Source: Dehalococcoidales bacterium (GTDB lineage Bacteria > Chloroflexota > Dehalococcoidia > Dehalococcoidales > UBA2162). From it: a stretch of DNA of 64,000 bases. Position numbers and translations under genes: made by a program. Under the pieces are notes generated by a model that saw nothing but the letters and a program-made list of their open reading frames with translations, had not been told where the DNA came from and did not search any database. Below, one piece after another: positions 7,008 through 46,446 of this stretch; position 1 is the stretch's first letter, and each line of letters opens with the position of its first letter. The stretch is taken from the NCBI GenBank assembly GCA_034432095.1, contig DAOUCV010000026.1:24657-88656 (forward strand). The letters run 5' to 3'.

Positions 7008-7637
7008 GTGTTTAGGTTTCCCTTTATGCCCCGGGAAGAGAAGTTTTTTGAGCTCTTTGAAAGAAGTGCCCAGAATATGGTAAAAGCAGCCCAGGTACTG
7101 AGGGAGTTAGTTGATACCTGGGAGAATGTAACGGAAAGAGTGGACGAAATAAGTGAGCTTGAGAGCAGAGGGGATACCATTACCCATCAGATTATGGAGC
7201 AGTTACACCGTACCTTTGTTACCCCGTTTGACCGGGAGGATGTCGCCCAACTGGCTCATAGTTTGGATGATGTTACTGACTTTATTGATGCTGCTGTTGA
7301 TGCCATGTTTTTATATAAGGTTGACCCTCCCGGCCAGAGCGCTAGAGAACTATCTGGTATTATAGTCGAGGCGGCTATTGAGGTAGAAAGAGCAATATCT
7401 CAATTACGCCACCGTGCTGAGTTAAATAAGATTCTTGAGCGGTGTGTGGAGATTAACCGGCTGGAGAATGTAGCCGATGAGATATACCGCTCAGCTCTGG
7501 CTGAGCTTTTTACTGATACTTCGGATATTGCTGATGTCATCAAGTGGCGTGAGATTTATGAGCATATGGAGAGCGCCACCGACAGGTGTGAGGATGTGGC
7601 TAATGTCCTTGAAGGGGTAGCCCTCAAGCGTGGATAA
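7008..7637 (+). CDS. DUF47 / PhoU-like phosphate transport regulator (YkaA type)
   Basis: 209 aa helical protein. It overlaps the downstream PiT gene by 8 nt, the conserved DUF47-PiT pairing. Confidence 0.8.
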   Translation: MFRFPFMPREEKFFELFERSAQNMVKAAQVLRELVDTWENVTERVDEISELESRGDTITHQIMEQLHRTFVTPFDREDVAQLAHSLDDVTDFIDAAVDAMFLYKVDPPGQSARELSGIIVEAAIEVERAISQLRHRAELNKILERCVEINRLENVADEIYRSALAELFTDTSDIADVIKWREIYEHMESATDRCEDVANVLEGVALKRG

Positions 7638-8625: not shown

Positions 8626-8626
8626 C

Positions 8627-9280
8627 TTACAAAGTAACTTCTCGGGGGGTTACCCGGCATTTCTCAGCAGTAATGATGGCTTTGATTTCTGATACTGCCA
8701 GGTCAATTTTATCCCCCCTGTTGACGACGAGATAATCGAACAGGGATAATCGTTTTATTTCTTCTTCTGCGGTCTTCAGGCGTAAGTTCAGGTCAGCGGG
8801 CGATTCAGTACGGCGTTTTTTGAGCCTGGCGAGCAACTCGTCCATCGATGGAGGTACCAGAAAGATAAGGACCGCCTGAGGCAGGATTTTTCTAATCGTA
8901 GCGGCTCCCTGAATGTCAACTTTTACCATCACATCCTGTCCCCGGTCTAAGGCTTGTTTGACTGGTTCCTTAGGTACACCATACCAATTGCCATAGACTT
9001 TTGCCCACTCTAGTAACTCGTTATTTTTAATCATCTCCTGAAACTTTTCCGTTGAGACGAAGTGGTAGTCGATATTATCTTTCTCCTTGGCTCGCCGGGG
9101 GCGTGTGGTCAGGGTAGTAATGTATTGGAGAGGGTAATCGGATTGTTTCAACCTAGCTAAAACTGCGTCCTTACCGGCTCCTGATGGACCGGAGAGGACG
9201 ATGAGTAACGGTCTTGCTGGTAGGTTAAACCTGAGCTGATCTTTACGAGCTGCCGGCTCTATCTCTTTTTCTGGTCTCAA
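8627..9280 (-). CDS. gmk: guanylate kinase
   Basis: P-loop SGPSGAGKD and TTRPRRAKE motif. The TTG start overlaps the remA stop codon (TTGA). Confidence 0.9.
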
Positions 9281-12135: not shown

Positions 12136-14889
12136 ATGATTACTTTAACTATTAATGACCAGAAAGTTGAAGCCAGTGAAGGGATGACGGTGCTGGAAGC
12201 AGCGAAGAAGGCTGGCATATATATCCCGACATTATGTTATCATGAATCCTTATCCCCCTACGGAGGCTGTCGTCTATGTGTTGTGGAGATTGAGAAGATG
12301 CGGGGCTTCCCCACGGCGTGCACGACACCGGCTGATAACGGCATGGTGGTAAAGACAAACACGCCACAGCTTCAGGAGTTCCGGCGGGGTATTTTAGAAC
12401 TGATGCTGACCGAGCATCCCCATACCTGCCTCATCTGTGACCGGAAGGAGCGATGTGAACCTTTTGATATATGTTTGCGCAGTGTGGCTGTGACCGAGCG
12501 CTGTGTGCTTTGTCCCAAGAATGGACGCTGTGAGCTGCAGGGGGTATTCGATTATGTAGGTCTTAAAGAAATCACGTTGCCGTATGCCTACAAGGATTTA
12601 CCGGTACACCGGGAAGACCCCTTCTTTGACCGGGATTACAACCTGTGCATCCTGTGCGGGCGGTGTGTCAGAGTCTGCCAGGAGGTAAGAGGTGCGGGGG
12701 CAATAGCCTTTACTTACCGCGGCAGCCGGACACTGGTTGGGACTGCCTTCGACCGACCGCTACAGGAATCGGGGTGTCAATTCTGTGGGGCGTGTGTTGA
12801 TATCTGCCCTACTGGGGCACTAATGGAACGGAGCCGAAAATGGGAGGGAGCCCGGGCTGAGCGTGAGGTGATTACCACCTGTCCTTACTGTGGGGTTGGC
12901 TGCCAGTTGAAGCTACAGCTTAAAGGGGACAGGATAATTGAAGTTCTCCCCAAGCGAGAAAATGCCGTAAATCGCGGGCAAGCCTGTGTCAAAGGCCGCT
13001 TTGGCATTCAAGAATTTGTTCATCACCCGGAGCGTCTACGCACCCCCCTAGTGAAGCGGAACGGGAAGTTTGAAGAGGCTACCTGGGATGAGGCACTGGA
13101 CATCGTCGCCCATAAGCTAGCCGGTTACAAACCAGATGAACTGGCTGTAATCCTCTCAGCCAAGGGTACTAATGAAGATAATTATGTTGCCCAGAAATTT
13201 GCCCGGGTGGTGCTGGGCACCAACAACATTGACCACTGTGCCCGTCTCTGACATGCCCCCACCGTAGCCGGTCTGGCTACAGCCTTTGGTAGCGGAGCAA
13301 TGACCAACTCTATCAACGAGATTGGTGATGCTGCCTGCATTCTGGCTATCGGCACCAACACCACGGCGGCTCACCCGGTAATCGGGCTGGAGGTGAAGAG
13401 GGCGGTGTTCAACGGGGGCAAGCTCATTGTTGCCAACCCCCGGGAAATTGAGCTGGTGCGTTTTGCTGACCTGTGGCTGAGGCATCAGCCGGGTAGTGAT
13501 GTCGCCCTGCTGATGGGGATGATGCGGGTGATAGTAGATGAGGGACTGCTTGACTCAACCTTTATACAGGAGCGGTGCGAGAACTTTGATGCCTTTAAGG
13601 CATCGCTAAAAAACTTTGACCTTGATTTTGTGGAGCAGGTTACCGGGGTGCCTAAGGAAAAGGTAGTTGAGGCTGCCCGGATGTATGCCACTAGTAAACC
13701 AGCAACTATTCTCTATTGTATGGGACTTACTCAACACTCGCATGGCACCGATAATGTTCTGGCTACGGCTAACCTAGCGATGCTCACCGGCAACATCGGT
13801 AAGCGGTCAACCGGGGTTAATCCGTTGCGTGGTCAGAACAATGTGCAGGGTGCCTGCGATGTTGGTGCTCTGCCCAATGTGTATACTGGCTACCAATCAG
13901 TAGCCGATGCGGCTGTTAGAGAGAAATTTGAAAAAGCCTGGGGAGTTAGCCTGAACCCCTCTCCAGGGCTGACCCTCACTGAGATATTTGATGCTGCCCA
14001 CAAAGGACAGATAAAAGCGGTCTATCTTATCGGGGAGAACCCGGTGCTCAGTGACCCCGACGCTAACCACGTCAGGGAATCTATAGAAGCACTGGAATTC
14101 TTTGTCGTTCAGGATATATTCCTCACCGAGACAGCCCAGCTGGCTGATGTCGTCCTGCCCTCAGTTAGCTTCGCTGAGAAGGACGGCACCTTTACCAATA
14201 CTGAACGCCGGGTACAACGGGTAAGGAAAGCGATTGAGCCGCTAGGCGATGCCAAGCCTGACTGGGAGATTACCTGCCAGATTGCCCGGAGAATGGGGGC
14301 TAAGGGCTTTGATTTTGAGAGTCCAGCTCAGATTATGGACGAGATTGCCAGTCTCACTCCCAGCTACGGGGGCATTTCCTACAGTCGTTTAGAGGGTGGA
14401 GGCTTGCAGTGGCCCTGCCCGAATAAGGAGCATCCGGGCACTCCAGTTCTGCATACTCAGCAGTTCAGTCGGGGGAAGGGTAGGTTTACACCTCTGGAGT
14501 ACAAGCCACCTAAGGAATTGCCCGATAGTGAGTATCCCTTAATCCTGACCACCGAACGAAGCCTGTATCAGTACCACACTGGCACCATGACCCGGAAGGT
14601 GAAGGGACTGAATACCATCCGTGGGGAGGAAATGGTTGAGATAAACCCGAGCGATGCCTCAGCCTTGGGTATTGCTGATGGCGAGATGGTCAAGGTCATC
14701 TCCCGGCGGGGAGAGGTGGTGGCTAGGGCTAAAGTGACTGAGACTTCGCCGGTAGGGGTGGTCACGATGGACTTTCACTTTGCCGAAAGCCCGGCGAATG
14801 TGCTGACCAATCCCGCGCTTGACCCGGTGGCTAAAATCCCTGAACTCAAGGTCTGCGCTGTCAGAATAGAGAAGAACGGGCGTAAGTGA
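12136..14889 (+). CDS. fdhA: formate dehydrogenase alpha subunit, selenocysteine-containing (in-frame UGA at 13249-13251)
   Basis: ORFs 12136-13251 and 13300-14889 share a frame. Their junction reads [26 protein letters not shown], the Mo/W-bisPGD Fdh active site. N-terminal NuoG-like 2Fe-2S and 4Fe-4S Cys clusters. Confidence 0.9.
13249..13300 (+). other. selenocysteine UGA codon plus SECIS hairpin
   Basis: TGA at 13249-13251. Twelve nt downstream lies the hairpin GUAGCC-GGUCU-GGCUAC (13264-13280), whose GGUC-containing apical loop resembles the E. coli fdhF SECIS. Confidence 0.8.
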
Positions 14890-32435: not shown

Positions 32436-32537
32436 GTCCTCCTCCTTTTGTAACTAAGACATATTGACTTTTTCTTTCCACTCCGTCAAAAATTTGTAGT
32501 TCTAGTATAACACGTCCTTTGTGATTGACGGTTCTAA

Positions 32538-32546
32538 TGTTATAAT
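32538..32546 (+). promoter_or_regulatory. extended -10 promoter candidate TGtTATAAT
   Basis: TG at 32538-32539, TATAAT at 32541-32546, about 30 nt upstream of ATG 32578. No good -35 element. Confidence 0.35.
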
Positions 32547-32577
32547 CTATGAAAGTCATCAATCGAAGGGGGAGAAA

Positions 32578-34044
32578 ATGATTGAAAAGGAGAAGCTGGT
32601 AGAAATCGTTGGGACCGCCAATGTAAGCTATGAGCCAGCCACTTTGGATGAATACTCCAGGGATGTGAGTTTTGTCAATAGCGTGAGGCCGTTATGTGTG
32701 GTAAAGCCAGCAAATGCTGGAGAAGTACAGAAGATAGTGAATCTGGCGAATGAGACGCTAACGCCGCTGGTGCCGGTGAGCTCTGGACCTCCCCACTTTC
32801 GCGGCGATACTGTTCCCGGCATTGGAGGGGCGGTTATCGTAGATTTAAGTAGAATGAAAAAAATCATCAGGGTTGACCGTTATCACCGGGTTGCCATGGT
32901 TGAGCCGGGGGTAACATTCGGAGAACTGATACCAGCGGTAGAAAAAGAGGGCCTCAGACTGAATATGCCCCTACTACCACGGAAGTCAAAGACTGTTGTC
33001 GGTAGCATGCTCGAAAGAGAGCCGGTAATAATGCCCAAGTATCAGTGGGATATATCAGACCCACTGGCTTGTGTTGAAGTAATCTTCGGGACTGGTGATG
33101 AGTTTAGAACCGGGCAGGCAGCCGGACCGGGGACAATAGAGGAACAGTGGGCAGCCGGGGGAGCACAAAAAGCGCCGTATGGGCCCGGTCCATTTTCCTG
33201 GCATCGGCTTATTCAGGGGGCGCAGGGGACGATGGGCATTGTAACCTGGGCATCGTTGAGATGTGAGTTGCTCCCCACGCTTGAAGAGCCTTTCCTGGCT
33301 GGCTCCTCAGAACTCGCTAGGCTCCTCGAGCTAACTCACTGGCTGGTAAGGCTGAGAGTGGTTAATGAGTGCTTTATCCTTAATAATACCAGTCTGGCAG
33401 CAATTACGGCGAAAAAATGGCCCGGGGATTACCGGGATTTGAAGGATGCTCTACCCCCCTGGGTGCTCTTCTTCAACATAGCTGGCTATGACTATTATCC
33501 TGAAGATAGGGTGAGCTACCAGATAAAGAACATCCGGGAAATAACCCAGCGGTTGGGGGTGGAACCGGTGAAAGCAGTCGGGGGAGTTTCAGCCAGTGAA
33601 TTATTGAAAGTAGTCCAGAGACCTTCTGCTGAGCCTTACTGGAAACTCCGCTACAAAGGAGCCTGCCACGACGTATTCTTTTTGACCATCTATGATAAGC
33701 TCGAAGGTCAAATTAGCCTCATGAATGACCTCGCTAATAAAGCTGGCTACCCTGCTTCGGATATGGGTGTGTACCTCCAGCCGATAGTACAGGGCACCAG
33801 CTGCCACGTTGAGTTTAATCTGTTCTATACTCCCGGAAGCCAAAGTGAGCTGGAGCGAATCAAGGAACTTTCTACTTCAGCCATCAAGAACTTAATGGCT
33901 AAGGGCGCTTTCTTCTCAAGACCTTATGGTGAAAGCGCAAGGATGATTATTAATAGAGATGCGGCTACCGTTGCTGTTTTATCGAAGGTTAAGAAGATAT
34001 TTGACCCAAACAATATTATGAATCCGGGGAAACTGTGCTTTTAA
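32578..34044 (+). CDS. FAD-binding oxidoreductase, VAO/GlcD (FAD_binding_4) family, divergent
   Basis: 488 aa. The N-terminal FAD-binding segment (VVKPANAGEVQKIVNLA ... IVDLSRMKKIIRVD ... VEPGVTFGEL) matches the family layout. GGGGAG RBS before ATG 32578. Confidence 0.7.
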   Translation: MIEKEKLVEIVGTANVSYEPATLDEYSRDVSFVNSVRPLCVVKPANAGEVQKIVNLANETLTPLVPVSSGPPHFRGDTVPGIGGAVIVDLSRMKKIIRVDRYHRVAMVEPGVTFGELIPAVEKEGLRLNMPLLPRKSKTVVGSMLEREPVIMPKYQWDISDPLACVEVIFGTGDEFRTGQAAGPGTIEEQWAAGGAQKAPYGPGPFSWHRLIQGAQGTMGIVTWASLRCELLPTLEEPFLAGSSELARLLELTHWLVRLRVVNECFILNNTSLAAITAKKWPGDYRDLKDALPPWVLFFNIAGYDYYPEDRVSYQIKNIREITQRLGVEPVKAVGGVSASELLKVVQRPSAEPYWKLRYKGACHDVFFLTIYDKLEGQISLMNDLANKAGYPASDMGVYLQPIVQGTSCHVEFNLFYTPGSQSELERIKELSTSAIKNLMAKGAFFSRPYGESARMIINRDAATVAVLSKVKKIFDPNNIMNPGKLCF

Positions 34045-34089
34045 ACACGAAGAAACTCACCGGTGAATAAATTCAGGAAGGAGCGAAAA

Positions 34090-35358
34090 ATGGGACTGGA
34101 AGAATACTTAGGTGATATGGAGATGTGCTGCCGGTGTTCTGCCTGCAAGTTTATACCCATGCAAAGGGTGACCGGATTTCAGTACGCAAATGTGTGTCCC
34201 AGCATATCGAAGTATGATTTCCATGCCTACTCGGGCGGCGGAAGATTAAACATCGCCGCGGCGATGTTGAAGAATAAAATTGAGTATTCCGACAAGCTCC
34301 TCGATATTGTGTACAACTGTCAGATGTGCGGTGCCTGTGATATATCCTGTAAATATGCTATGGATATGGAGGTACTTGAGCCCATCTATGAATTCCGCAT
34401 CAGAGCTGTGGAAACAGGACATACCCACCCGGCTCTTGATAAAGTTATCAGGAGCCTGGGCAAACAGGGTAGTATGGTGCCCGGCGTCAGGGGCAAGCGT
34501 GGCGACTGGGCGGCCGGCCTGGACTTAAAGGACGCTACTGAAGAGAAGGTGGCTGTTTTATATCATGTCGGCTGTCTGGCGAGCTACGACAAGAATTACC
34601 AGAAGCTGGCTAGAGCTATTGCCAAGATATTACAGAAGGCTGGTGTCAACTTCGGTATCGCTGGCGACGCTGAGACCTGCTGCGGCGGGCGGGCTTATCA
34701 GATGGGCTATAAAGAGGACTTTCTAAATCAGGCAAAAAAGAACGTGGAAATGATAAAAAGAGCAGGGGCAAAAACATTGGTCACCGGCTGTGCCGACGGC
34801 TATCAGGCTTTCAAGGTGCTCTACGACAAATACAACCTCAAGGGTGAGTGGGAAGTCGTGCATATCACCGAGTTAATAGCCCGCCTGATTAAACAGGGCA
34901 AACTCAAGCTGAACAAGAAAGTTAATATGAATGTCACTTACCATGACCCCTGCCACCTCGGCAGGCTGAGTGAGCCGTGGATTCACTGGGAGGGGAAAAA
35001 GGTTCCGGGGCACCGGTTTGTCTTCGACCCGCCCAAGACCTATCGCCGGGGTACCAATGGCGTTTATGACCCACCGAGGGATGTGCTGAACAGCATTCCC
35101 GGTGTAAGGCTTACCGAGATGGTCAGGATAAAGGAATACTCCTGGTGCTGCGGGGCCGGTGGCGGCGTTAATGAGTCCAACCCTGAGTTTTCCCTGTGGA
35201 CCGCCAAAGAAAGGCTCGAAGAAGCTGAGTCTACCGGGGCTGAGGCGATTGTTACCACCTGTCCCTGGTGCGAAAAGAACCTTAGCGAAGCCATCAAGGA
35301 AACCGGCAGCAGCCTGAAGGTGTACGATATCGTTGAACTCGTAGAAAAGGCAATCTGA
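34090..35358 (+). CDS. GlcF/HdrD-like (Fe-S)-binding subunit with two CCG domains
   Basis: Two 4Fe-4S ferredoxin motifs (CCRCSACKF...CPS and CQMCGACDISC) and two CCG motifs (ETCCGGRAY, SWCCGAGGG). Confidence 0.8.
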   Translation: MGLEEYLGDMEMCCRCSACKFIPMQRVTGFQYANVCPSISKYDFHAYSGGGRLNIAAAMLKNKIEYSDKLLDIVYNCQMCGACDISCKYAMDMEVLEPIYEFRIRAVETGHTHPALDKVIRSLGKQGSMVPGVRGKRGDWAAGLDLKDATEEKVAVLYHVGCLASYDKNYQKLARAIAKILQKAGVNFGIAGDAETCCGGRAYQMGYKEDFLNQAKKNVEMIKRAGAKTLVTGCADGYQAFKVLYDKYNLKGEWEVVHITELIARLIKQGKLKLNKKVNMNVTYHDPCHLGRLSEPWIHWEGKKVPGHRFVFDPPKTYRRGTNGVYDPPRDVLNSIPGVRLTEMVRIKEYSWCCGAGGGVNESNPEFSLWTAKERLEEAESTGAEAIVTTCPWCEKNLSEAIKETGSSLKVYDIVELVEKAI

Positions 35359-35376
35359 GAAAGGGGGCAATGAACC

Positions 35377-36846
35377 ATGGCTTTAAGCAAGGACATTTAT
35401 CAGGCGTTCGAAGATGTGGTGGGAAAGGAGTACATCTGTGATGACCCGGCAATAATGCCGGCGTATCATTCGGCTGAGCTCGCCGCGGTAATTCTTCCCA
35501 AGAACACCGCGGAAGTTCAAGCGATAGTCAAGCTATGTAACAAATTCAAGCTGAAATTCAGAGCGGTATGTACCGGCTGGACGGGGATGTTCCCCAAGGG
35601 GATTATCTATTTAGACCTGAGAAGGATGAACCGCATCATTGAGATCAATGAGAAAAATATGTATGCCGTGGTTGAGCCGTATGTCATCTCAGCACAGCTA
35701 CAAGCCGAGCTATTCAAGAGGGGCTTGAATTGCAACATAAAGGGAGCGGGGTCTAACTGCACGGCGCTCCTCAGGGGTCACGGACATATGGACCAGACCA
35801 CCAGTGGCGACGACCGAAACCATCTGGCGGTAGAATGGGTAACTCCTGAAGGGGAAATAGTCAGGTTGGGTTCGCTGGGGTCTTCGGATGAATGGTTCTG
35901 TGGTGACGGGCCAGGACCGTCTTTAAGGTGCTTGATTAGCAGTGCGGTGCCGCCAGGCGTAACACCGGGTGTATTTACAAAAGTGGCGATGAAGCTTTAT
36001 CACTGGCCAGGACCCCCAAGATTTCCAATAACAGGGGTATCACCAAATTACACCCTGAGTGAGATACCACCTGGCTTCATGGTACGATATTTCAGCTTCC
36101 CGTCACCAGAGAAAATGTATGAGGCGGAGCTAAAGATAGGTGAGAGTGAAATAGCCTTTGAGCTAATGGGTTTCAATATGTCAATGGTAGCAGCGAATAT
36201 AACAACTTGTAATGAAGAAGAGGCGGAAGTCTTCGGGCGGCTAAACAAGTTGGTGCAGGGGCCTGGCTTTATGGTAATCATCGCCGGCAACTCTCCGGAA
36301 GACTTTGACTATAAGAAACGGGTGCTGGAGCAAATTATCAGTGAAACTGACGGGCAGTCCTTAAAACCAGTCGAAGACCCCAAAATTGAAGGGGTTCTGT
36401 TGTGCCAGTGTATAAGAATTAGTGCCTCCATTAGAGAGACGTTCCGGGCTGGAGGGGTCTTTAATTCAATTCCTGTTATGGGCCAAAGAGACTTGACGCT
36501 CAAATGGATGTTAGGGGCTGCCAGGGCAAAGGAGCCCTTGATAAGTAAGGGGTTGATAGTGGATGATGGCGCCGCGGGCTTTGGCTGGGGAGTTGAACAT
36601 GGGCATCTCGGGAAAACTGAGATATTCTGCCGGTACGACCGTCTCAACCCTGAAGCGGTAAAAGCCGTGCAGGAATGGCAAAGGGAGCAAACTAAGAGGG
36701 CTTTTGATGGCCGCTTCTTCGCCTCCACAATGGGCCCGATTGATGAAATCGGACCAGCTTTGTCAAATTACCATATATGGTTGAGGAAGGTTCAGAAAGC
36801 ACTTGACCCGAATGATGTATCACCCGCGGGAGGCGCACTTGTCTAG
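35377..36846 (+). CDS. FAD-binding oxidoreductase-like protein, VAO/GlcD family, highly divergent second subunit
   Basis: 489 aa. Same domain order as 32578-34044 (ILPKNTAEVQAIVKLC ... YLDLRRMNRIIEINEKNMYAVVEPYV), but the glycine-rich FAD loop is altered. Confidence 0.6.
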   Translation: MALSKDIYQAFEDVVGKEYICDDPAIMPAYHSAELAAVILPKNTAEVQAIVKLCNKFKLKFRAVCTGWTGMFPKGIIYLDLRRMNRIIEINEKNMYAVVEPYVISAQLQAELFKRGLNCNIKGAGSNCTALLRGHGHMDQTTSGDDRNHLAVEWVTPEGEIVRLGSLGSSDEWFCGDGPGPSLRCLISSAVPPGVTPGVFTKVAMKLYHWPGPPRFPITGVSPNYTLSEIPPGFMVRYFSFPSPEKMYEAELKIGESEIAFELMGFNMSMVAANITTCNEEEAEVFGRLNKLVQGPGFMVIIAGNSPEDFDYKKRVLEQIISETDGQSLKPVEDPKIEGVLLCQCIRISASIRETFRAGGVFNSIPVMGQRDLTLKWMLGAARAKEPLISKGLIVDDGAAGFGWGVEHGHLGKTEIFCRYDRLNPEAVKAVQEWQREQTKRAFDGRFFASTMGPIDEIGPALSNYHIWLRKVQKALDPNDVSPAGGALV

Positions 36847-36962: not shown

Positions 36963-37634
36963 ATGAGCATTAAGGTACTGACTATTAAAGAGGACATCCT
37001 GGGCGCTAACGAAGAAAAAGCGAAGGCAAACCGGGAACTGGTAGATAAACACCACATCCTTATGATTAACATCATGTCCTCACCCGGGGCGGGCAAGACC
37101 AGTCTTATCCTACAAACCATAAACAGGTTCAAGGGGAAAACCCGTATTGCTGTTATTGAGGGTGATGTTGCTTCGACAATGGATGCCGATAAGGTAAGCA
37201 AGCTAGCTGTCCCGGTAATTCAAATAAATACCGCTGGTGCCTGCCACCTTGATGCCAATATGATTAGGAAGGCGCTGGATAATCTAGCTCTTGAGCAGAT
37301 TGACCTCCTCCTTATCGAAAATGTCGGTAATCTTATCTGCACGGCTGAGTTTGCCCTCGGTGCCCATAAACAGGTAATGCTCTTGAGCGTTCCCGAAGGC
37401 GATGACAAACCTTATAAATACCCCTTAATGTTTACGGAAGCTGATGTGGTGCTGGTAAACAAAATCGATGTCCTGCCGTACTTTGATTTTAATGTTAACG
37501 CCTTCTCTAAAGCAGTCAGTGGTCTAAACCCTTCGGCTAAAATATTCCCGGTTTCCGCTAAGACGGGCGAAGGTCTGGAAGCATGGTTCTCCTGGCTTGA
37601 AAACGCGATAAAACAGCAAACCAGCACAGCTTAG
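36963..37634 (+). CDS. hypB: hydrogenase/urease nickel-incorporation GTPase HypB
   Basis: 223 aa. P-loop SSPGAGKTS, CH motif (AGACHLDA), ENVGNLIC, NKID. Confidence 0.9.
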   Translation: MSIKVLTIKEDILGANEEKAKANRELVDKHHILMINIMSSPGAGKTSLILQTINRFKGKTRIAVIEGDVASTMDADKVSKLAVPVIQINTAGACHLDANMIRKALDNLALEQIDLLLIENVGNLICTAEFALGAHKQVMLLSVPEGDDKPYKYPLMFTEADVVLVNKIDVLPYFDFNVNAFSKAVSGLNPSAKIFPVSAKTGEGLEAWFSWLENAIKQQTSTA

Positions 37635-37688: not shown

Positions 37689-38283
37689 TCATTGCTCTAC
37701 ATCCAGTCCCCATATCCTGAACAACTCCTTGTAGAACTCAGGACGGGGGAAGTCAGGCCTCATCTCAAAGCTGGAATAGGTATATCCGGCACCCCTCTTT
37801 CCCCATTGCCTGAGCTCCAAGATTAAGTCTTCTATCTTATCTTTAGGCACGGAGAAAATGAGTTCGTCCTCTCCTGGCATTGCCCGCTGCTGCTCGCCGG
37901 CACAGGGCAGGCTAATCCGGTACCGGCCTGTTAACATTACATCCACAACGGCGTAAACGCACGAGTTTATCGGGTCCAATTGAGAGCTCACCAGGATGCC
38001 CTCTCTATTCGGTCGCCTCGGGCTCCACCAGCCCGAAGCTGATTAACGGGGCCCAGCACCAGTTGTCCTCTTTCAGCATGGCTACAGTAATTCTCTGCCG
38101 ACGCGACATGGCGAAAGCCTGACATTGCGAAAGATGAAAGCCACGGTCTCGCCGTGGTCTGAAGGCGTCTTTGGGGGGTTCCTCTTTCTTCTCAAGCATC
38201 TTCACCGCTAGGGGGGAAGTCCTCAATAGCAGTAACTTCTCAAGGTCTTCTCCATATTGATTGTAATCGCTGATTGTTATCAT
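37689..38283 (-). pseudogene. DUF169-like gene split into two ORFs (92 aa N-part, 100 aa C-part) by a frame change, apparently missing the middle section
   Basis: N-part: LRTSPLAVKMLEKKEEPP...LSQCQAFAMSRR. C-part: ISLPCAGEQQRAMPGEDELIFSVP. Together these resemble the ends of DUF169 proteins. The stop is at 38005-38007, and the next ORF is in the +1 frame from 37991. Confidence 0.4.
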
Positions 38284-38384: not shown

Positions 38385-38777
38385 CTACTTTTTCACAAAC
38401 TTCGCCACTCTAGCTAGCAGCTCTTCAGGGCTAACTGGCTTTTCAATGTAATCTTCAGCGTCGAGGGTAAACCCGCGGCTAACTGGGATCCCTGTCCCCG
38501 CACGCTTAGCTGAAAAACCCGTTAACATGAGGGTCGGGATTTTACTGAGTTGAGGGTCTTTTTTGAGCTGTTCAGCAGCCGTGAACCCATTTTTGACTGG
38601 CATTATCACATCCAAGAGAATCAAATCAGGTTTTTCCTCTCTTGCTTTCCGTAATGCCTCATCACCTTCACGGGCGACTATTACCTCATAAGCCTTACTC
38701 TCTAGGATAGTTTTGGTTGACTCCACAAAGTCCATATCATCGTCAACAAGCAAAATTCTGGTTTTCTTCTGCTTCAT
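38385..38777 (-). CDS. single-domain response regulator (CheY-like receiver only)
   Basis: LLVDDD, phospho-acceptor LILLDVIMP, LMLTG, EKP. No output domain. GAGGAG RBS before ATG 38777. Confidence 0.9.
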   Translation of the reverse strand: MKQKKTRILLVDDDMDFVESTKTILESKAYEVIVAREGDEALRKAREEKPDLILLDVIMPVKNGFTAAEQLKKDPQLSKIPTLMLTGFSAKRAGTGIPVSRGFTLDAEDYIEKPVSPEELLARVAKFVKK

Positions 38778-38813
38778 TGTTTCTCTCCTCAAGTATTGAG
38801 CCTATGGCCCAGG

Positions 38814-39215
38814 TCAGACCTTCTGTCTCTTTTTGATAAGCTTGCCCACCCTCTCCAGCAGAACATCAGGGGAAACAGGCTTCTCAACATAATCATCGAC
38901 ATCGAGCTCGAGACCGGTCTCCAGCTCGTAGCGACGGCGACTAGCCTCCTCCCTTACTGAGGTTAGAATTAGAATGGGTATATCCTTGAACTTTGCCCAT
39001 CTTGGGTCTTGCAACTCTTTACATACCCCAAACCCATCCAGCTTTGGCATCAACAGGTCGAGGATCATCAGGTCAGGTTTTTCCGCTTTGAGGGTAGCTA
39101 AACCTTCTATCCCGTCTCGGGCGGTAACCACCTGATAGCCCTGAGTTTCCAGAATCATACTTACCGCATCTAAGATGTCCGGGTCGTCATCAACTACCAA
39201 TATCTTCGCTGGCAT
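38814..39215 (-). CDS. single-domain response regulator (CheY-like receiver only)
   Basis: LVVDDD, LMILDLLMP, LILTS, EKP. 133 aa with no output domain. Confidence 0.9.
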   Translation of the reverse strand: MPAKILVVDDDPDILDAVSMILETQGYQVVTARDGIEGLATLKAEKPDLMILDLLMPKLDGFGVCKELQDPRWAKFKDIPILILTSVREEASRRRYELETGLELDVDDYVEKPVSPDVLLERVGKLIKKRQKV

Positions 39216-39232
39216 ATTATCCTCCTCTGCAA

Positions 39233-40150
39233 TTATAATACAGGTCTGGGCAATAATCCAGCCTGCTTTACAATTTCCGGGACGATGTCCTCCCAGCCGA
39301 CTGCCATAATATGGATGCCGTGCACTCCGGGTATTTCCTTGAGTTGCTCAATAATCTCAAGAGCGATTTTCACTCCCTCCTCTTTGGCATTCCTCGCCTC
39401 TTCCATTCTGGTGACTATCTCATCGGGGACACTGACTCCGGAAACATAGTCGCGCATATAGCGAGCCATACCTGCTGACCTGATGGGTATTACTCCAGCT
39501 AGAATATGTACCTGCTTGTCCAGACCTTTATCGGTAACCATCGCCATCCATCTGGCGAACTTGGCTACATCATAGACTGCCTGGGTTTGAATAAAGTCAG
39601 CTCCTGCTTTTATCTTCTTAGCCAGTCTCGTTACTCGGAACTCAAAGGGGTCAGCATAGGGATTCTCCGCAGCGCCAATGAATAGCGGGACTTCTCCAGA
39701 GATATCCTCGCCGCAGAGAAGTTTCTTCTCATCCCGCATTTTCTTCAGGGTTTGAATTAACTGGATGGAGTCAATATCAAAGACATTCTTGGCTGTGGGG
39801 TGATTGCCAAACTTTTGATGGTCGCCGCTAAGGCAGAGGATATTGCCGATGCCCAGAGCTACCGCCCCCAGTACATCGCTTTGAATGGCGATTCTGTTGC
39901 GGTCTCGGCAGACGATCTGCATAACTGGGTCAACCCCCTGTTGCTTTAGAAGGAGACAACCGGCGAAGCTGGACATACGAACGATGGCGGTCTGATTATC
40001 AGTTACATTGACGGCATCGCAACAGTTACGGAGTAGTTCACCCCTCCTCAGCATCACCGTAGCGCTAGTCCCCTTGGGTGGACCTGCCTCAGCAGTAACG
40101 GCGAACCCCCCACTTTCCAGGACCTTCTCCAGATTTGTTCCTGCTTTCAT
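39233..40150 (-). CDS. metF: methylenetetrahydrofolate reductase, acetogen-type MetF
   Basis: 305 aa MTHFR TIM-barrel (FAVTAEAGPPKG, NVTDN, FIGAAENP, GADFIQTQ). Its ATG overlaps the histidine kinase stop (ATGA). Confidence 0.9.
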   Translation of the reverse strand: MKAGTNLEKVLESGGFAVTAEAGPPKGTSATVMLRRGELLRNCCDAVNVTDNQTAIVRMSSFAGCLLLKQQGVDPVMQIVCRDRNRIAIQSDVLGAVALGIGNILCLSGDHQKFGNHPTAKNVFDIDSIQLIQTLKKMRDEKKLLCGEDISGEVPLFIGAAENPYADPFEFRVTRLAKKIKAGADFIQTQAVYDVAKFARWMAMVTDKGLDKQVHILAGVIPIRSAGMARYMRDYVSGVSVPDEIVTRMEEARNAKEEGVKIALEIIEQLKEIPGVHGIHIMAVGWEDIVPEIVKQAGLLPRPVL

Positions 40151-41622
40151 TGTTGTTGCCTCCGTTCTATTTCACACTTAGGTAAGCGGAAGGAAAATTT
40201 GCTGCCTACGTTATTCTCGGGGCAAGGGGACTCAACCCATATCGTCCCTCCATGTGCCTCTATAATCCTCCTGGCTATGGATAGCCCTAAGCCTGTGCCC
40301 TTCGTTTCCACATTACTGGCACGGAAAAAGTCTTCAAAGATGTGGGGCAGGTCCTGGGGAGGGATGCCAATCCCGGTATCGATGACTTCAACCCGTATGT
40401 CCCTGTCTTCTTCCTCCACTCTGACCGTTATTGTGCCCTCAGGGGTGTAGGTAATAGCATTGCTCACCAGATTGGTTATCACCTGCTGGAGACGAGGGGC
40501 TGAGCCACGAATATTAGGGACTGACCCGGGCAACTCCACCTTGAGCTTTAGTCCCTTTTCCTTTGCCCGGTCACGCAGGTCGTCGCACCCGGTCTTGACC
40601 ACCTGGCACAGGGAGATCTCCTTCATCTCTTCAACAAGCTGCCCGGTTTCAATGCGGGGGATATCGAGAAGGTCGCTGATTAGACTCAGGAGTTCATTAA
40701 TCCTTCTGGTGCTCCTTTCCAGCATATTCTTCTGTTTGGCAGTGATTTCCCCGGCATATCCACCCAGCATAACCCACAGGAAACCTTGGATAGCCGTAAG
40801 CGGGGCTTTAAGGTCATGAGCGGCAATGCCCAGGAAGCGGAGGAAGCGACTTTTCTCTTCTTCAAGCTTGGCTATCTCCCTTGAAGCTTGCTCTAATTCT
40901 CCCGTTTTCTCTCGAAGCAGGTACTCTCTTAATTGAACTACTTCTCTCTGTCTCTTCCTCAGCTCTCCTGAGATAGCTGTGGTCATATACGTGGTAGCAT
41001 AAAGAATAACCACTAAAGCGGTAAGAACCGATAAGATATAACCCCCCTCTTTATACAGTGTCGGAGGAGCAAAGCCTACTAGATTGACATGGGCTATCAC
41101 TCCGGCATATTCCAGCCCTACCAGCAAAGTTATCATTAGCGTTGCTACAGTTGCTAGCAGATATACCGTCCGGTAAGGCTGGATTATGCTGGCAATGATA
41201 ATGTGGAATACGAAGAAGAAGATAAATGGGTTTTCTATTCCGCCGGTAAAGTGAAGAATTGCGGTGAGGGCCAATAGGTCGAAGATGGTGTTGATGTAGC
41301 CATAGGTTCGGGATTTCTGGATTATCATGCCGGGCTTCTCAGTTCGGAGTCTTCGCACCTGGTAAATTAGAATCAGGTTATACCCGGCCAATATGACACA
41401 GATAATATAGACCGGGAGGGTGGGGAACCCAATATGGAAAACCTTTGACGCTAACAAGGTAGCAACAATCACCCCGAGAATAGCCAGCCATTTCAGGCGA
41501 ATGAGAATCCTTCGCCGCATTAATAATGCGGCTTCCTCGGGGGTGTATTCGTGTTTCCCCTCCTCCTTCCCCCCATCCAGCAGGTAAGCCAGGGATTGCA
41601 GGGACTTGTTCCACCGCCTCAT
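40147..41622 (-). CDS. membrane-bound sensor histidine kinase
   Basis: About 6 N-terminal TM helices, coiled coil, H-box GIAAHDLKAPL, N-box LVSNAITYT, G-boxes DTGIGI and GTGLGLSIARR. ATG 41622 is preferred because it avoids overlap with metV. Confidence 0.9.
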   Translation of the reverse strand: MRRWNKSLQSLAYLLDGGKEEGKHEYTPEEAALLMRRRILIRLKWLAILGVIVATLLASKVFHIGFPTLPVYIICVILAGYNLILIYQVRRLRTEKPGMIIQKSRTYGYINTIFDLLALTAILHFTGGIENPFIFFFVFHIIIASIIQPYRTVYLLATVATLMITLLVGLEYAGVIAHVNLVGFAPPTLYKEGGYILSVLTALVVILYATTYMTTAISGELRKRQREVVQLREYLLREKTGELEQASREIAKLEEEKSRFLRFLGIAAHDLKAPLTAIQGFLWVMLGGYAGEITAKQKNMLERSTRRINELLSLISDLLDIPRIETGQLVEEMKEISLCQVVKTGCDDLRDRAKEKGLKLKVELPGSVPNIRGSAPRLQQVITNLVSNAITYTPEGTITVRVEEEDRDIRVEVIDTGIGIPPQDLPHIFEDFFRASNVETKGTGLGLSIARRIIEAHGGTIWVESPCPENNVGSKFSFRLPKCEIERRQQQ

Positions 41623-41627
41623 TATTA

Positions 41628-42287
41628 TTACCCCTCTAAAGCAATCTTTCTGGGTCCCCCGGCGTGGCTGGTGCTCCAATCGCGGGGTGGGGCGATTTCC
41701 TCCAGCCGGTCCAGCTGCCCCAGAGTTTCCAGGCGCTCAATTATCATCTGCCAGGCGCAGGGGATGTCTGGTGATAGTTCGCACCTGCCCTTTACCGAAC
41801 CACCGCAGGGCCCGTTAAGCAGGCTCTTAGCACATCTGACCAGGGGGCATATACCCGCCGTCTGTGCCAGGACGCAACTACCGCACTGGGCACAAACCTC
41901 GATAAAATAACCCGGACTCTCCTCCTTACCAACAAACAAGGTGTTCAGTGCCGGATAAACAGGCTTGGGCTTCCCCAAATAGAGGGAAACAGTTTGTACT
42001 CCAAAGGCACAGGTGAGCACCAGGATACAATCGGCAGCATCAATATCATTAGCATTCTCCTGCAAAGCTTCCCGTGTGAGCTCGTCACAGGCGGTGGGGA
42101 TGACCATCCATCCGGTCACTTTCTTGCCGGCTTCCTCAAGCTTGGCTTTCATTTCCAGAACCTCGGATTTACCACCAGTTCGGCACAGAGTAGCACAGGT
42201 ACCACACCCGATAAGGTAAACCCCCTGGCATTTACCCAGTAATTGCGTAACCTCTTCCCAGGGTTTTTGCTGGGTTATTGTCTTCAT
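41628..42287 (-). CDS. metV: MetV (methylene-THF reductase C-terminal-domain / zinc-ribbon Fe-S subunit)
   Basis: 219 aa. Hallmark motifs CPLVRCAKSLLNGPCGG and CAQCGSC. Its ATG overlaps the NuoF-like stop (ATGA). Confidence 0.85.
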   Translation of the reverse strand: MKTITQQKPWEEVTQLLGKCQGVYLIGCGTCATLCRTGGKSEVLEMKAKLEEAGKKVTGWMVIPTACDELTREALQENANDIDAADCILVLTCAFGVQTVSLYLGKPKPVYPALNTLFVGKEESPGYFIEVCAQCGSCVLAQTAGICPLVRCAKSLLNGPCGGSVKGRCELSPDIPCAWQMIIERLETLGQLDRLEEIAPPRDWSTSHAGGPRKIALEG

Positions 42288-43504
42288 ATCACTGCTCCTG
42301 CCTTAATGTCTTTTCTTAGCCGGTCATCATAGGCGCTTCTAAAATACCGAAGGCTGTCCATTACCGGATTGGGCACTGCCTGTCCCAAACTACATAGGGA
42401 AGCAAGCCTCATAACCTTGGACAATTCCTGTAGGTTCTTAATGTCTTTCTCTGTCCCCTCCTCACCGGAGAACTTCTTCAAGATTTCAAGCATTACCTGG
42501 GTTCCCTCCCGGCACGGAGTACATTTACCGCAGGATTCCCGGCTAAGAAACTCCAGTGTCTGGTAGACAATGTCTATTATACCTTTGGTTTCATCAAATA
42601 CGCTAACTGCTCCAGCCCCAAGAACAGCCTCAAAGGCGAGGGGAGTATCTATCATTTCATAGGGTATAATCCTTCCAATAGCGCCGCCTACCTGAACTGC
42701 CTTGACCTTTTCCGCTAGGGCTAGTCCTTCGACTAGTTCCCTCAGTGGACTCCCTAAGACTAGTTCATATACGCCGGGCTTCTTCACATCCCCGCTCACC
42801 CAGAAGACCTTGGTGCCTTTGCTCTTTTGTGTGCCCAACTGTCTGAACCATCGGGCGCCGTTAAGGATTATTTGGGGTATATTCATCAGGGTTTCTACAT
42901 TATGGACAATAGAGGGTTCCCTCCATAAGCTTTTAGCTGTGGTAAATGGGGGTCTATAGCCGACCTCTATGCGCTTACCCTCAATGGAATCCATAATTGC
43001 TGATTCATCACCAGTAACATAGGGAGCCGACCCCTGGCGAAGACCAATTTCAAAGTCTGCCAGAAGACCCTTCTCTTTGGCTTGCTGAAAAGCATTGGTC
43101 AAGAGAGGAATAAGATGACGATATTCAGTAGACAGATAGATATAGCCCTTATTTGAGCCTGTAGCATAGCCGGCAATAGCCATCGCTTCAATCAGAGTGA
43201 AGGGGTCTCTCTCCAGAATATACTTATCCTTAGATGTTCCAACCTCTCTCCCATCGGCATAGGCGATAACATACTTCTTATTCTCTTGAGCCTTTCTCAC
43301 CTCTTCCCACCTCAATCCGCAGAGAGAACCATCCCCTCCCCGCTCCTGCAAGCCCGATGCCTTTACTTCCCCCAGTACTTCTTCCGGGGTCATCTCTTCT
43401 CTAGCTTTTTTCAAAGCCTTGAAACCGTCTCTATCCAAATAGGTGGCTATGCGCTTGGGGTCAATTACCTCGCAATTTCGTAACACAATTCGCTTCTCTG
43501 GCAT
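42284..43504 (-). CDS. NuoF-like iron-sulfur protein with degenerate FMN/NADH-binding motifs
   Basis: 406 aa, collinear with the core of 10164-12086. RGGDGSLCGLRW replaces GRGGAGFPTGQKW, YADGREVGTS replaces CNADEGDPGAF, and APYVTGDESAI replaces GAFVCGEETAL. ESCGKCTPCREG and LCSLGQ are retained. AAGGAGG RBS before ATG 43504. Confidence 0.8.
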   Translation of the reverse strand: MPEKRIVLRNCEVIDPKRIATYLDRDGFKALKKAREEMTPEEVLGEVKASGLQERGGDGSLCGLRWEEVRKAQENKKYVIAYADGREVGTSKDKYILERDPFTLIEAMAIAGYATGSNKGYIYLSTEYRHLIPLLTNAFQQAKEKGLLADFEIGLRQGSAPYVTGDESAIMDSIEGKRIEVGYRPPFTTAKSLWREPSIVHNVETLMNIPQIILNGARWFRQLGTQKSKGTKVFWVSGDVKKPGVYELVLGSPLRELVEGLALAEKVKAVQVGGAIGRIIPYEMIDTPLAFEAVLGAGAVSVFDETKGIIDIVYQTLEFLSRESCGKCTPCREGTQVMLEILKKFSGEEGTEKDIKNLQELSKVMRLASLCSLGQAVPNPVMDSLRYFRSAYDDRLRKDIKAGAVI

Positions 43505-43505
43505 G

Positions 43506-43751
43506 CTATAGCCTCCTTGCTGAACCTGAGCTTGGCGGCTTGGTCGAGAGGAAAGGGCAAAAGGTGGCAACGCTATATACCTGGCTGGGGAATAGCTTTA
43601 GCCTGTCAGCAATAGCCTCTATAGCTGGTGCAGGAATCCAGCCAAATTCAGCTTGGACCTCAGCCAACACTGAGATTAAGGCGCCTTCCTGTCCTTTATA
43701 ATTAGCCAGTATTTTATCCAGTTTGCTTAGCTCTATTTCCTCGGTTTTCAT
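43506..43751 (-). CDS. NuoE-like N-terminal helical domain only (no 2Fe-2S domain)
   Basis: 81 aa. Aligns to residues about 5-65 of the NuoE at 9703-10161 (ILANYKGQEGALISVLAEVQAEFGWIP...VYSVATF). It stops before any cluster cysteine, and the next gene starts 2 nt later. Confidence 0.65.
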   Translation of the reverse strand: MKTEEIELSKLDKILANYKGQEGALISVLAEVQAEFGWIPAPAIEAIADRLKLFPSQVYSVATFCPFLSTKPPSSGSARRL

Positions 43752-43752
43752 C

Positions 43753-46434
43753 CTAAGCTTTCTCTACCTTCACCGCGCATGCCTTTAGCTCGGGTATCTT
43801 GGCCACCGGGTCCAGCGCCGGATTAGTCAGTATATTGGCGGCCGCTTCTTTAAAATGGAAGGGCATAAATACTGTGCCCGGTAGCACCATCTCGGTTACC
43901 CTAGCCCTGGTTATCAACGAGCCGCGTCTGGATGTTATCTTGACCATGCTGCCATCCAACACTCGCAGGTTTTCAGCATCGTCAGGATTTATCTCAACAA
44001 AGCCTTCAGAACATATTTCATTAAGTCCCCTAACCCTTCTCGTCATTGTCCCGGTATGGAAGTGATATAAAACCCTCCCCGTGGTCAGTACCAGGGGGTA
44101 GTCCTTATCTGGCAGTTCGGCCGGGGGAATATATTCTACAGGGGTAAACTTGCCTCGACCCCTGATAAACCTGTCTTCGTGCAGAAACCTTGTCCCGGGA
44201 TGGTCTTGACCGGGGCATGGCCATTGTAATCCCCCATTTTCAAGTCGGTCGTAGCTTATGCCACCGTAGCTGGGCGTTAGCCGGGCAATTTCGTCCATAA
44301 TTTGCTTGGGTGATTCATAAGCCATGGGATAACCCATCCTGGTAGCTAGCTCGCTGATTATCTGCCAGTCAGGCTTTGCCTGCCCGATAGGCTCGATAGC
44401 CTTCCTCACCCTCTGGACACGCCTCTCGGTGTTGGTGAATGTCCCGTCCTTCTCGGCAAAGCTGACGGCGGGGAGTACTACATCAGCCAGTTTGGCGGTC
44501 TCACTCAAGAATATGTCCTGGACGACGAGAAAATCAAGCGATTCAAGGGCTTCTATGACATGAGTAATATCTGGGTCACTGAGTGCCGGGTTCTCTCCCA
44601 TAATATACATCCCTCTGACTTTTCCTTCTTTGGCGGCTTGGAGCATTTCCACTACCGAGAGTCCGGCTTTGTCAGGTAGTTTACTTCCCCATTCCTTCTC
44701 AAACTTTTCCCTAACTGAGGCAACATCCAGCCGTTGGTATCCCGGAAATACATTTGGCAAAGCCCCCATATCGCACGCTCCCTGGACATTGTTCTGACCT
44801 CTCAGAGGGTTGACCCCGGTGCCCTCTTTACCGACATTCCCGGTCAGCATCGCCAGATTGGCCAGACTAAGCACATTATCCGTACCGCTGGTATGCTGGG
44901 TAATCCCCATGGCGTAGATTATTGAAGCTCTCTCGGCTTGGGCATATAGCCTGGCTGCCTTACGGATATCAGAGGCTGGAACGCCGGTGACCCGTTCCGC
45001 ATACTCCGGGGTGTATTTCTGTATCCCTGCCTTCAGTTCCTCAAAGCCTTCGGTCCTTTGGCTGACAAACTCCTTGTCCCAGAGTTCTTCATTGATAATT
45101 ACATTTACCAAGCCATTGATAAGGGCGACATCGGTGCCTGGTCTTTGTCTCAGCCATATGTCGGCAAATTTGGTCAGTGTTATGGCTCGCGGGTCAGCGA
45201 TGATTAACTTTGCTCCCTTTAACTTGACCGCCCGTTTAATCCGATGGCTTATTATGGGATGTTCTTCGGTGGTGTTGGAGCCGATAACCAGAATGGCAAT
45301 GGCACTTTCTATTTCCTCTATAGAGTTGGTCATCGCTCCGCTACCGAAGGCTGTAGCCAGACCGGCTACGGTGGGGGCATGTCAGAGGCGGGCGCAATTA
45401 TCTATGTTATTGGTACCAATAACCGCCCGCATAAATTTTTGCATCAGGTAGTTTTCTTCATTGGTGCACTTGGATGAACTCAAGCCAGCGAGACTATCGC
45501 TACCATATTTCTGTTTGATTTCCTCCAGTTTATGAGCCACGAAATCCAGCGCTTCTTCCCAGGAGCTTTCCGTAAGCTCGCCATTTTTCCTGATTAATGG
45601 GGCTTTCAGCCGGTCAGGGTGATTGATAAAGTTGAGTCCATAGCGACCTTTGACACACAGGCGCCCCTGGTTAACCGGGTTTTCTCCATCAGGAGTCACG
45701 CTAATGACTTCTTGGTCTCGAACGTTAAGCTCAACTCCACAGCCGCAGCCACAATAAGGGCAGATGGTACGAACCTTTCTCGTCGTTTTCCACTTATACT
45801 TGGCCGGTCTATCTGATAACGCCCCCACAGGGCACATGGAGACGCAGAGCCCGCAAAATTCACAAGAGGATTTTTCCAAAGGCTGGTCAAGCAGGGTCGC
45901 CGGTTTGGACTGAAATCCCCGGTAGGCATAATCAATGGCACCTACAACTGACAGTTCCTGGCAGGCTCTTATGCATTTGCCACAAAGAATGCACTTGGTA
46001 AGGTCCCTCTCAATAAAGGGGTTGGTGTCTTCTATCGGGTAATAGCGTTTCTTAGCCCTGAATCGGGGGAGCCCTACCCCCAGGTCAGCCGCAATCTTGC
46101 GTAACTCGCACAGGTTCGCTTTGTCACATACCAGGCAGTTATCGGGGTGGCTGGCTAGCAACAGTTCCACTATTGCCCGCCGAGCTTCCACAACCTTTGG
46201 GGAATGAGTATATATAACCATTCCCTGGGCAATTGGCGTGTGGCAGGAGCCGACAAGCGTACCAGAGCCCTCCACCTCAACGACGCAAACACGACAGGCA
46301 CCGATAGGAGTCAAGACCGGACTATGGCAGAGGGTGGGAATATATATGCCGTTGTCCCGGGCAACCTCCAGAATGGTCATGCCCTCACGCCCGCTAACTT
46401 TGGAACCGTCAATCGTTATAGAGATATTGCCCAT
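43753..46434 (-). CDS. fdhA: formate dehydrogenase alpha subunit, selenocysteine-containing (in-frame UGA at 45384-45382)
   Basis: ORFs 45382-46446 and 43753-45333 share a frame. Their junction reads [27 protein letters not shown]-terminal 2Fe-2S/4Fe-4S clusters. Paralog of 12136-14889. ATG 46434 is preferred over TTG 46446. Confidence 0.9.
45333..45384 (-). other. selenocysteine UGA codon plus SECIS hairpin (second copy)
   Basis: TCA at 45382-45384 on the + strand is UGA on the - strand. The hairpin GUAGCC-GGUCU-GGCUAC lies at 45369-45353, 12 nt downstream of the UGA, and is identical to the first copy. Confidence 0.8.
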
Positions 46435-46446
46435 GTTATGGCTCAA

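Follow-up and report, generated by a model that had tools for sequence, protein, structure and literature searches.

The methylene-tetrahydrofolate (methylene-THF) reductase (MTHFR) reaction is the step that is energetically decisive in the Wood-Ljungdahl pathway (WLP), and also its least understood one. The acetogen enzymes RnfC2-MetFV of Acetobacterium woodii and HdrABC-MvhD-MetFV of Moorella thermoacetica serve as comparison types, in which MetF and MetV are combined with a flavin/FeS electron-input module encoded upstream, and metV and metF are normally adjacent (PMC5736913). A 64,000-nucleotide (nt) stretch of DNA from a Dehalococcoidales bacterium (GenBank contig DAOUCV010000026.1), referred to below as the window, contains MetF, MetV and such an upstream module; its NuoF-like subunit recalls the RnfC2 type, and Hdr/Mvh subunits occur in its relatives. 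Unlike in the acetogens, the two MetFV genes are here split by a 1.5-kb gene for a sensor histidine kinase (HK), two genes for receiver-only response regulators (RR1 and RR2) follow metF, and the input genes encode a selenocysteine-containing (Sec) FdhA and a truncated NuoE. This HK-metF-RR1(-RR2) arrangement is a conserved unit, old and genetically tied to one metF paralogue.

A similar arrangement has been mentioned once before. Sewell et al. (2017) reported that "phoBR" flanks metF_1 in the hdrABC-mvhD-metVF cluster of the marine Chloroflexi single-cell genome DscP3 (PMC5736913), which appears to be the same layout as in the window. Their account is a single sentence under a phosphate regulon annotation, and the RegB-type sensor, the missing DNA-binding domain and the breadth of the arrangement went unrecognized. 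Literature searches combining MetV/MetF with histidine kinase, and RegB with Dehalococcoidia, returned only this passing sentence and, for subsurface metagenome-assembled genomes (MAGs), RegB/RegA named in a generic, KEGG-style way (PMC10681998). New with respect to the searchable literature are the breadth of conservation, the RegB-type sensor, the sensor swaps and the fusion to a cyclic nucleotide monophosphate (cNMP)-binding-like domain, the fact that the DNA-binding domain has been lost, and the constancy of the RR1 motif, all described below.

The module and the metV gene before it occupy the following positions in the window:

41628-42287, minus strand: metV, small subunit of MetFV-type methylene-THF reductase (PF12225, E=5e-36)
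40147-41622, minus strand: HK, sensor histidine kinase of 491 amino acids (aa) (Pfam 6TM_PilS, HisKA and HATPase_c)
39233-40150, minus strand: metF, catalytic subunit of methylene-THF reductase (PF02219, E=3e-42)
38814-39215, minus strand: RR1, 133-aa receiver-only protein (PF00072 only)
38385-38777, minus strand: RR2, 130-aa receiver-only protein (PF00072 only)

These genes end a single tightly packed string on the minus strand that reads fdhA(Sec)-nuoE'-nuoF-metV-HK-metF-RR1-RR2 (46446-38385). An earlier note, made from the letters of the window, had described a 491-aa HK placed between the normally adjacent metV and metF, 5 nt after the metV stop and overlapping metF at an ATGA (40147-40150). 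The coordinates are confirmed: the metV stop is the TAA at 41630-41628, the HK ATG (41622) follows it after 5 nt, and the HK TGA (40149-40147) overlaps the metF ATG (40150-40148). The two receiver-only proteins that it placed after metF, and the good ribosome-binding sites that it gave them, were likewise recovered, with GGAGG preceding RR1 and GAGGAG preceding RR2. Its spacing of 17 to 21 nt stands for the metF-RR1 junction (17 nt) and fails for RR1-RR2, where the gap to the RR2 ATG, which is also the start in the source gene call, is 36 nt; 21 nt is the distance to an alternative TTG that lacks a ribosome-binding site.

To follow this arrangement through related genomes, we used two surveys, whose loci are numbered with the prefix L. 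The HK-centred survey scanned one genome per species and found 295 relatives, from which 80 loci were fetched and their neighbours mapped by tblastn. The MetF-centred survey covered 80 metagenome loci whose MetF is at least 85% identical to the window MetF. Kinases at least 67% identical to HK over its full length form more than 120 clusters at the 90% identity level, and the relatives are nearly all MAGs labelled Dehalococcoidales, Dehalococcoidia or Chloroflexota. Linkage to metF or metV was found in about 71 of the 77 evaluable HK loci, all from different species (3 of the 80 contigs are too short). The metF gene lies directly 3' of HK in 61 of the 80 loci, with metV also directly 5' in 56 of these, and the order metF-HK-RR occurs in 5 of the 80. 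HK-RR1-RR2 stands ahead of fdhA-nuoE-nuoF in L014 and L084, the former running on to metV and the latter ending within nuoF. On the short contigs L044 and L081, metV is directly 5' of HK and the sequence stops before any downstream gene, and in L078, a MAG labelled Fraserbacteria, metV lies upstream but on the other strand, and HK is the last gene before the contig end.

Seen from MetF, the association is equally regular. HK is directly upstream of MetF in 66 of 69 evaluable loci and a receiver directly downstream in 61 of 64, one of the three loci without it, L156, being an artefact caused by a split match of MetF. In 130 of 131 loci the metF start follows the HK stop by no more than 26 nt; the distance is -4 to +26 nt in 129 of the 131, and 43 show an overlap of 1 or 4 nt, so that the tight coupling described in the earlier note extends across the family. 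Mean identity to the window copy is 86% for MetF, 82% for RR1 (over 113 orthologues), 73% for RR2 (over 94), 72% for MetV and 62% for HK; RR1 is thus conserved about as well as MetF and better than MetV or HK. A DNA-binding response regulator was absent from the mapped operons, both in the window, as the earlier note had said, and in more than 100 related loci. That note had also proposed surveying the surroundings of metV/metF in relatives, with absence of the HK and receiver genes from this position in all of them pointing to a recent local insertion; they are present nearly everywhere. Together, the two surveys rule out a recent or chance insertion, or the hitch-hiking of an unrelated two-component system.

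Three loci of the MetF-centred survey (L114, L157 and L168) carry a plain NuoF-MetV-MetF string in which HK is missing, with MetF 86% to 88% identical to the window MetF. The receivers are also missing in L114 and L168, and the L157 contig ends before the receiver position. Since HK and receivers are missing together, gain or loss seems to affect the module as a whole. At columns that are otherwise invariant, MetF of these three loci shows 6, 1 and 3 changes, and MetV none; K121R, at one such MetF position, is common to two of the three.

Around the constant HK-metF-RR core, the electron-input genes vary. L002 and L004 have a short NuoG-like protein (NuoG') with NuoE and NuoF upstream, the window has Sec-FdhA with truncated NuoE' and NuoF, and L007 has FdhA, NuoE and a NuoF::GltD fusion, HK there following a MetF paralogue of 42% identity. 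HdrA-like/MvhD proteins and a [NiFe] hydrogenase take this place in L058, L171 and L173. The core reaches beyond Dehalococcoidia to MAGs labelled Anaerolineae (L073) and Acetothermia (L080), as well as to L171-L173, contigs that carry a cNMP-fused form of HK whose named members are Bipolaricaulia and Anaerolineae. All three of these sampled fused-HK contexts read ...metV-(hydrogenase)-HK-metF-RR(-RR)-metV2-metF2. Many relatives have such a second MetV2-MetF2 pair just 3' of the receivers, sometimes followed by FolD (L016, 10507-12059; L171, 10615-12212; L172, 10803-12218; L173, 10761-12319); its proteins are 42% to 46% identical, as measured in L016. The MetV2-MetF2 genes are adjacent in these four loci, which bears out, with PMC5736913, the earlier note's statement that metV and metF normally are. 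The 64-kb window holds no second copy of metV or metF.

The closest known counterparts of the kinase are the redox-sensing histidine kinases RegB/PrrB/ActS of Proteobacteria, which act with RegA/PrrA. The features of HK discussed in the following paragraphs are:

40906-41541, minus strand: six-helix transmembrane (TM) sensor domain, residues 28-239 (NCBIfam and Pfam matches, AlphaFold2 model)
41224-41244, minus strand: GGIENPF, residues 127-133, in the TM3-TM4 loop, matching the RegB quinone-site motif GGXXNPF
40816-40818, minus strand: predicted phospho-acceptor His269, in the H-box AAHDLKAPL (HisKA match)
40177-40500, minus strand: HATPase_c domain, residues 375-482, with N, G1, F and G2 boxes (PF02518, E=2.6e-33)

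The earlier note had seen membrane helices without an obvious domain here, a description that no longer holds. By sequence, the input of HK is a RegB/PrrB-type domain of six TM helices with GGxxNPF in the TM3-TM4 loop. Residues 1-236 alone match the NCBIfam ActS/PrrB/RegB model NF033792 with E=2.4e-19 (residues 34-216 against profile positions 7-174) and the Rhodobacter RegB model NF045988 with E=5e-16. The full protein aligns end to end with ActS/PrrB/RegB (residues 34-467), at 116 bits against a cut-off of 350. An AlphaFold2 model of moderate confidence (predicted local distance difference test score 69.6), from which helix positions only were taken, places the helices at residues 28-60, 68-94, 100-125, 133-147, 150-172 and 193-239. 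The PilS-like Pfam domain PF25323 (6TM_PilS) also matches, more weakly than RegB (E=3e-7 to 4e-7); PilS is a pilin sensor whose partner is the sigma54 activator PilR, and pilus genes do not occur here.

Invariance in HK was read from an alignment of 24 family members. Within GGIENPF, G127, E130, N131, P132 and F133 are invariant and G128 and I129 at least 90% conserved. At E<=1e-10, 808 representatives of 50%-identity clusters are related to the TM domain, and GGxx[NS]PF is found in 101 of the best 150. In RegB this motif is the ubiquinone site, and mutation of N110 or F112 disrupts quinone binding and redox sensing (PMC3000548). HK also shares the R-W...G pattern of RegB TM1: W45 and G50 are invariant, and the equivalent of RegB R31 is K44 in the window and Arg in most relatives (manual alignment to a primer-derived RegB TM1, PMC3000548). 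The HisKA/HATPase_c core and the association with redox and energy metabolism are further points of likeness. The differences lie in the partners, RegB having the DNA-binding RegA and HK two receiver-only proteins; in the gene setting, HK being embedded in an enzyme operon; and in the hosts, which are Chloroflexota and Bipolaricaulia/Acetothermia and not Proteobacteria.

All catalytic motifs of HisKA-type kinases are kept. H269, D270, L271, K272, A273, P274 and L275 of the HisKA domain (PF00512) are invariant, as are N384, D415-x-G417-x-G419, F432-F433 and G442-x-G444-x-G446. The residue four past the phospho-His is Ala (HDLKAPL). HisKA phosphatase activity commonly needs Thr or Asn at this position, and Ala there would suit a phosphate-sink role of the second receiver.

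Where the sensor domain has been swapped or extended, the kinase core is retained and stays in the same place. In five loci the kinase between metV and metF is soluble, with GAF (four loci) or PAS (one) replacing the six-helix domain (L082, about 7540-8795; L083; L086; L087; L088, about 7640-8760) and a core 63% to 66% identical. The kinases of L073 (840-2708), L078 (7536-9398) and L080 (7536-9455) are 48% to 50% identical to HK, are 620 to 639 aa long and carry an additional N-terminal cNMP-binding-like domain; that of L080 has its stop overlapping the metF start. This fused form comprises more than 120 clusters. In about 19 Dehalococcoidia loci the cNMP-binding-like domain is instead a separate flanking gene of about 160 aa (L002, 13233-13721; L004, 13223-13711), which is missing from the window. 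The partner has a cNMP_binding domain only, with no DNA-binding domain, and its phosphate-binding cassette looks degenerate by eye (FGWSAL... instead of FGE...RSA), so that the ligand may not be a cyclic nucleotide.

RR1 and RR2 are receiver-only proteins of the OmpR/PhoB lineage, predicted to be phosphorylatable. PF00072 spans nearly all of each, and the chains stop after the receiver, the C-terminal winged-helix DNA-binding domain being missing. The two are 43% identical. By position, RR1 has its acidic triad at D9-D11, the phospho-acceptor at D53, and T85, Y109 and K112; RR2 has D12-D14 and the phospho-acceptor D56; these residues are conserved in the respective orthologues. They are most closely related to the receiver halves of PhoP, PhoB, RpaB and OmpR-family regulators, and the nearest solved structures to RR1 are PhoP and OmpR-family receivers, which accounts for the "phoBR" label in the literature. 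A PhoBR phosphate system was considered and rejected: only the generic kinase core and the receiver halves match PhoR/PhoB models, far below cut-off, and the DNA-binding domain is missing. Labels of "PhoR/PhoB" on such HK and RR genes are thus wrong.

Between the conserved Thr and Lys, RR1 and RR2 are about 5 residues longer than CheY by residue count. Alignments to structures in the Protein Data Bank place a 5-residue insertion relative to the PhoP receiver in alpha4 of RR1:

38913-38954, minus strand: RR1 alpha4 motif REEASRRRYELETG, residues 88-101, nearly invariant in 113 orthologues

Apart from E or D at its third position, the same motif, RE(E/D)ASRRRYELETG, is found in L073, in L072 (Mvh-linked), in L171 and in L173; all RR1-type receivers aligned from these lineages have it unchanged. 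Receivers usually employ the alpha4-beta5-alpha5 face for output and dimerization, and the invariance of alpha4 in RR1 points to a conserved macromolecular partner. Receiver-only proteins with the conserved phospho-acceptor, Thr, Tyr and Lys are known from CheY-FliM, CpdR-ClpXP and DivK, which act by protein contact; with this architecture, output of RR1 and RR2 would necessarily take the same route. RR1 and RR2 differ from these in their OmpR/PhoB lineage and in the Arg-rich alpha4 insertion, and a metabolic enzyme would be an unusual target.

These features lead to the proposal that HK, RR1 and RR2 form a two-component module dedicated to the MTHFR step, responding to redox state and exerting control by protein contacts. 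HK would read the redox or energy state of the membrane through a putative quinone-like or other lipophilic redox carrier, and the GAF, PAS and cNMP-like variants would read a cytoplasmic ligand instead. HK would phosphorylate RR1 and RR2, and phospho-RR1 would use its unchanged alpha4-beta5-alpha5 face to bind a protein partner, most likely MetF or the complex of MetFV with its electron-input module. Such binding would tune the activity, direction or assembly of the methylene-THF/methyl-THF step. RR2 could provide another output, join in a heterodimer or serve as a phosphate sink. Action by protein contact, which the earlier note had likewise favoured, is suggested because the receivers are without any output domain, and the MTHFR complex is the most parsimonious target because the module genes flank its gene; the linkage pattern and the unchanged RR1 alpha4 face make a direct output on the enzyme more plausible. 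As a whole chain this reading is tentative, and we give it a little under an even chance. Its most specific version, in which the Arg-rich alpha4 face of phospho-RR1 docks on MetF or on MetFV-NuoEF/Hdr and gates or reverses the step in response to a RegB-type membrane redox signal, we consider doubtful. The comparative evidence is solid, and the mechanism is put forward as a hypothesis.

Several observations weigh against control of MTHFR by this module. Six HK loci show no link to metF: L031, L065 and L071 have HK-RR-RR alone, L048 has HK alone, and in L072 (3107-9900) and L075 (1212-8307) HK-RR1-RR2 lies directly upstream of an HdrA-like/MvhD/MvhG/MvhA cluster with metF not nearby. Given these metF-free family members, the target may be broader than MTHFR, for example a wider class of cytoplasmic redox complexes. 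The MetV-MetF variants that lack HK and receivers show that the enzyme does not need the module. As to the sensor, the equivalent of RegB Q38 is Val or Ile in the HK family (manual TM1 alignment), and none of the 24 aligned members has a Cys equivalent to RegB Cys265, about 40 residues past the phospho-His; C339 and C346 of the window HK are not conserved in the family. Together with the score below the RegB cut-off, this makes the domain RegB-like and the protein no RegB orthologue. Finally, the linkage within the operon would be just as well accounted for if the module, via an unlinked partner, controlled how the operon itself is expressed.

That last point leads to the strongest competing explanation, in which control is transcriptional and indirect: RR1 and RR2 would serve as relay, sink or partners of an unlinked regulator, such as a DNA-binding regulator or a sigma/anti-sigma factor, that sets expression of the MTHFR/WLP operon. 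The receivers do come from a lineage that normally has a transcriptional output, two paralogous receivers on one kinase is a known layout of sink and relay systems, and some family members lie away from metF. Yet neither an Hpt (histidine phosphotransfer) protein nor a DNA-binding partner is conserved in any of the approximately 170 loci, and the one recurrent partner, the cNMP-like protein, has a cNMP_binding domain and no DNA-binding one. Transcriptional control also offers no explanation of why HK and metF are so tightly coupled or why the alpha4 motif of RR1 is unchanged, and we place it on the unlikely side. Information could also flow the other way, with the MetFV-electron-input complex as co-sensor, HK reading electron flux or the redox state of the enzyme, and the receivers informing other targets. 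The RegB/PrrB-type sensor domain fits this, and there is a parallel in PrrB, which reads flux through the cbb3 oxidase; HK is encoded between both enzyme subunits, where translational coupling would favour co-assembly, and several redox modules are associated with the family, including Mvh hydrogenase without metF. The idea is nevertheless pure analogy, the GAF and PAS variants imply small-molecule inputs, and it is silent on what the receivers act upon. We regard it as improbable, and it is compatible with, not exclusive of, a module that controls MTHFR by protein contacts.

A structural role for HK, as a membrane anchor or subunit tethering the MTHFR complex, with signalling secondary or vestigial, has in its favour that a polytopic protein is encoded between metV and metF and that methylene-THF reductase activity has been reported to be membrane-localized in an acetogen (PMC9586279). 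This is hard to reconcile with the invariance of all kinase motifs, with soluble GAF and PAS variants at the same position, and with two receivers that are co-conserved and lost together with HK, and it is very improbable. The idea of a recent local or chance insertion, functionally unconnected to metF, can draw on the mobility of two-component genes and on nothing further, and it has practically no chance of being correct given that the arrangement, with its junctions, recurs in more than 130 independent loci, across several gene orders and in MAGs labelled Dehalococcoidia, Anaerolineae and Acetothermia.

The module stands next to metF regardless of the input genes, and so offers a handle on redox sensing and the switching of one-carbon flux in abundant subsurface bacteria. 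With this layout in hundreds of sediment Chloroflexota and Bipolaricaulia/Acetothermia-type relatives, it looks like a dedicated control circuit, and RegB-type redox sensing would reach beyond Proteobacteria. If the receivers act on the enzyme, this would be a rare case of two-component control of a metabolic enzyme by direct contact; if RR1 docking is true, post-translational two-component control of the WLP would be conserved from Chloroflexota to Bipolaricaulia/Acetothermia.

The upstream part of the operon in the window consists of the electron-input genes:

43753-46446, minus strand: fdhA, opening gene of the operon, encoding a molybdopterin formate dehydrogenase with a fused NuoG-like N-terminus
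43506-43751, minus strand: nuoE', 81 aa, matching PF01257 at profile positions 2-63 of 145 only
42284-43504, minus strand: nuoF-like subunit, 406 aa (PF01512 and PF10589; Nuo51 FMN-binding domain and 4Fe-4S region)

The fdhA product matches Fer2_4, NADH-G_4Fe-4S_3, Molybdop_Fe4S4, Molybdopterin and Molydop_binding in Pfam, and the source gene call puts its start at 46434. Its single in-frame stop is a TGA (45384-45382) inside NCARL-*-HAPTVAG, a context (NCARL-U-HAPTVAG) that indicates selenocysteine; judged from this TGA, the organism probably uses selenocysteine. A second formate dehydrogenase gene in the window (12136-14889, plus strand) has a single in-frame stop at about 13249-13251 in the same (N/H)CARL-*-HAPTVAG motif, and is preceded by NuoE, of 152 aa, and NuoF, which has 640 aa and additional ferredoxin domains. 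In the operon, the nuoE' open reading frame ends just past ...LSTKP, with nuoF next; the C-terminal half, which the NuoE of relatives (148 aa) possesses, is missing. The short form is also present in a few related contigs and may for that reason be a real variant rather than an assembly error. The nuoF product matches the NCBIfam nuoF_fam model with E=8e-108.

The source of the window is a 137.7-kb JGI metagenome contig. When the five module proteins were run by tblastn against the 64 kb, no additional HK or receiver gene came up, and counts from a promoter and terminator scan of the operon equalled the shuffled expectation. Downstream of RR2, a DUF169 gene (37689-38283, minus strand) is divided into two open reading frames of 92 and 100 aa in different frames; the split is a frameshift, and thus a pseudogene or a sequencing error, not a recoded stop. 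Beyond it lies a glycolate/D-lactate-oxidase-like trio of two FAD_binding_4 proteins around a CCG-domain Fe-S protein (32521-36846, plus strand), followed at 36963-37634 by a cobW/HypB-like GTPase gene on the strand opposite to the operon.

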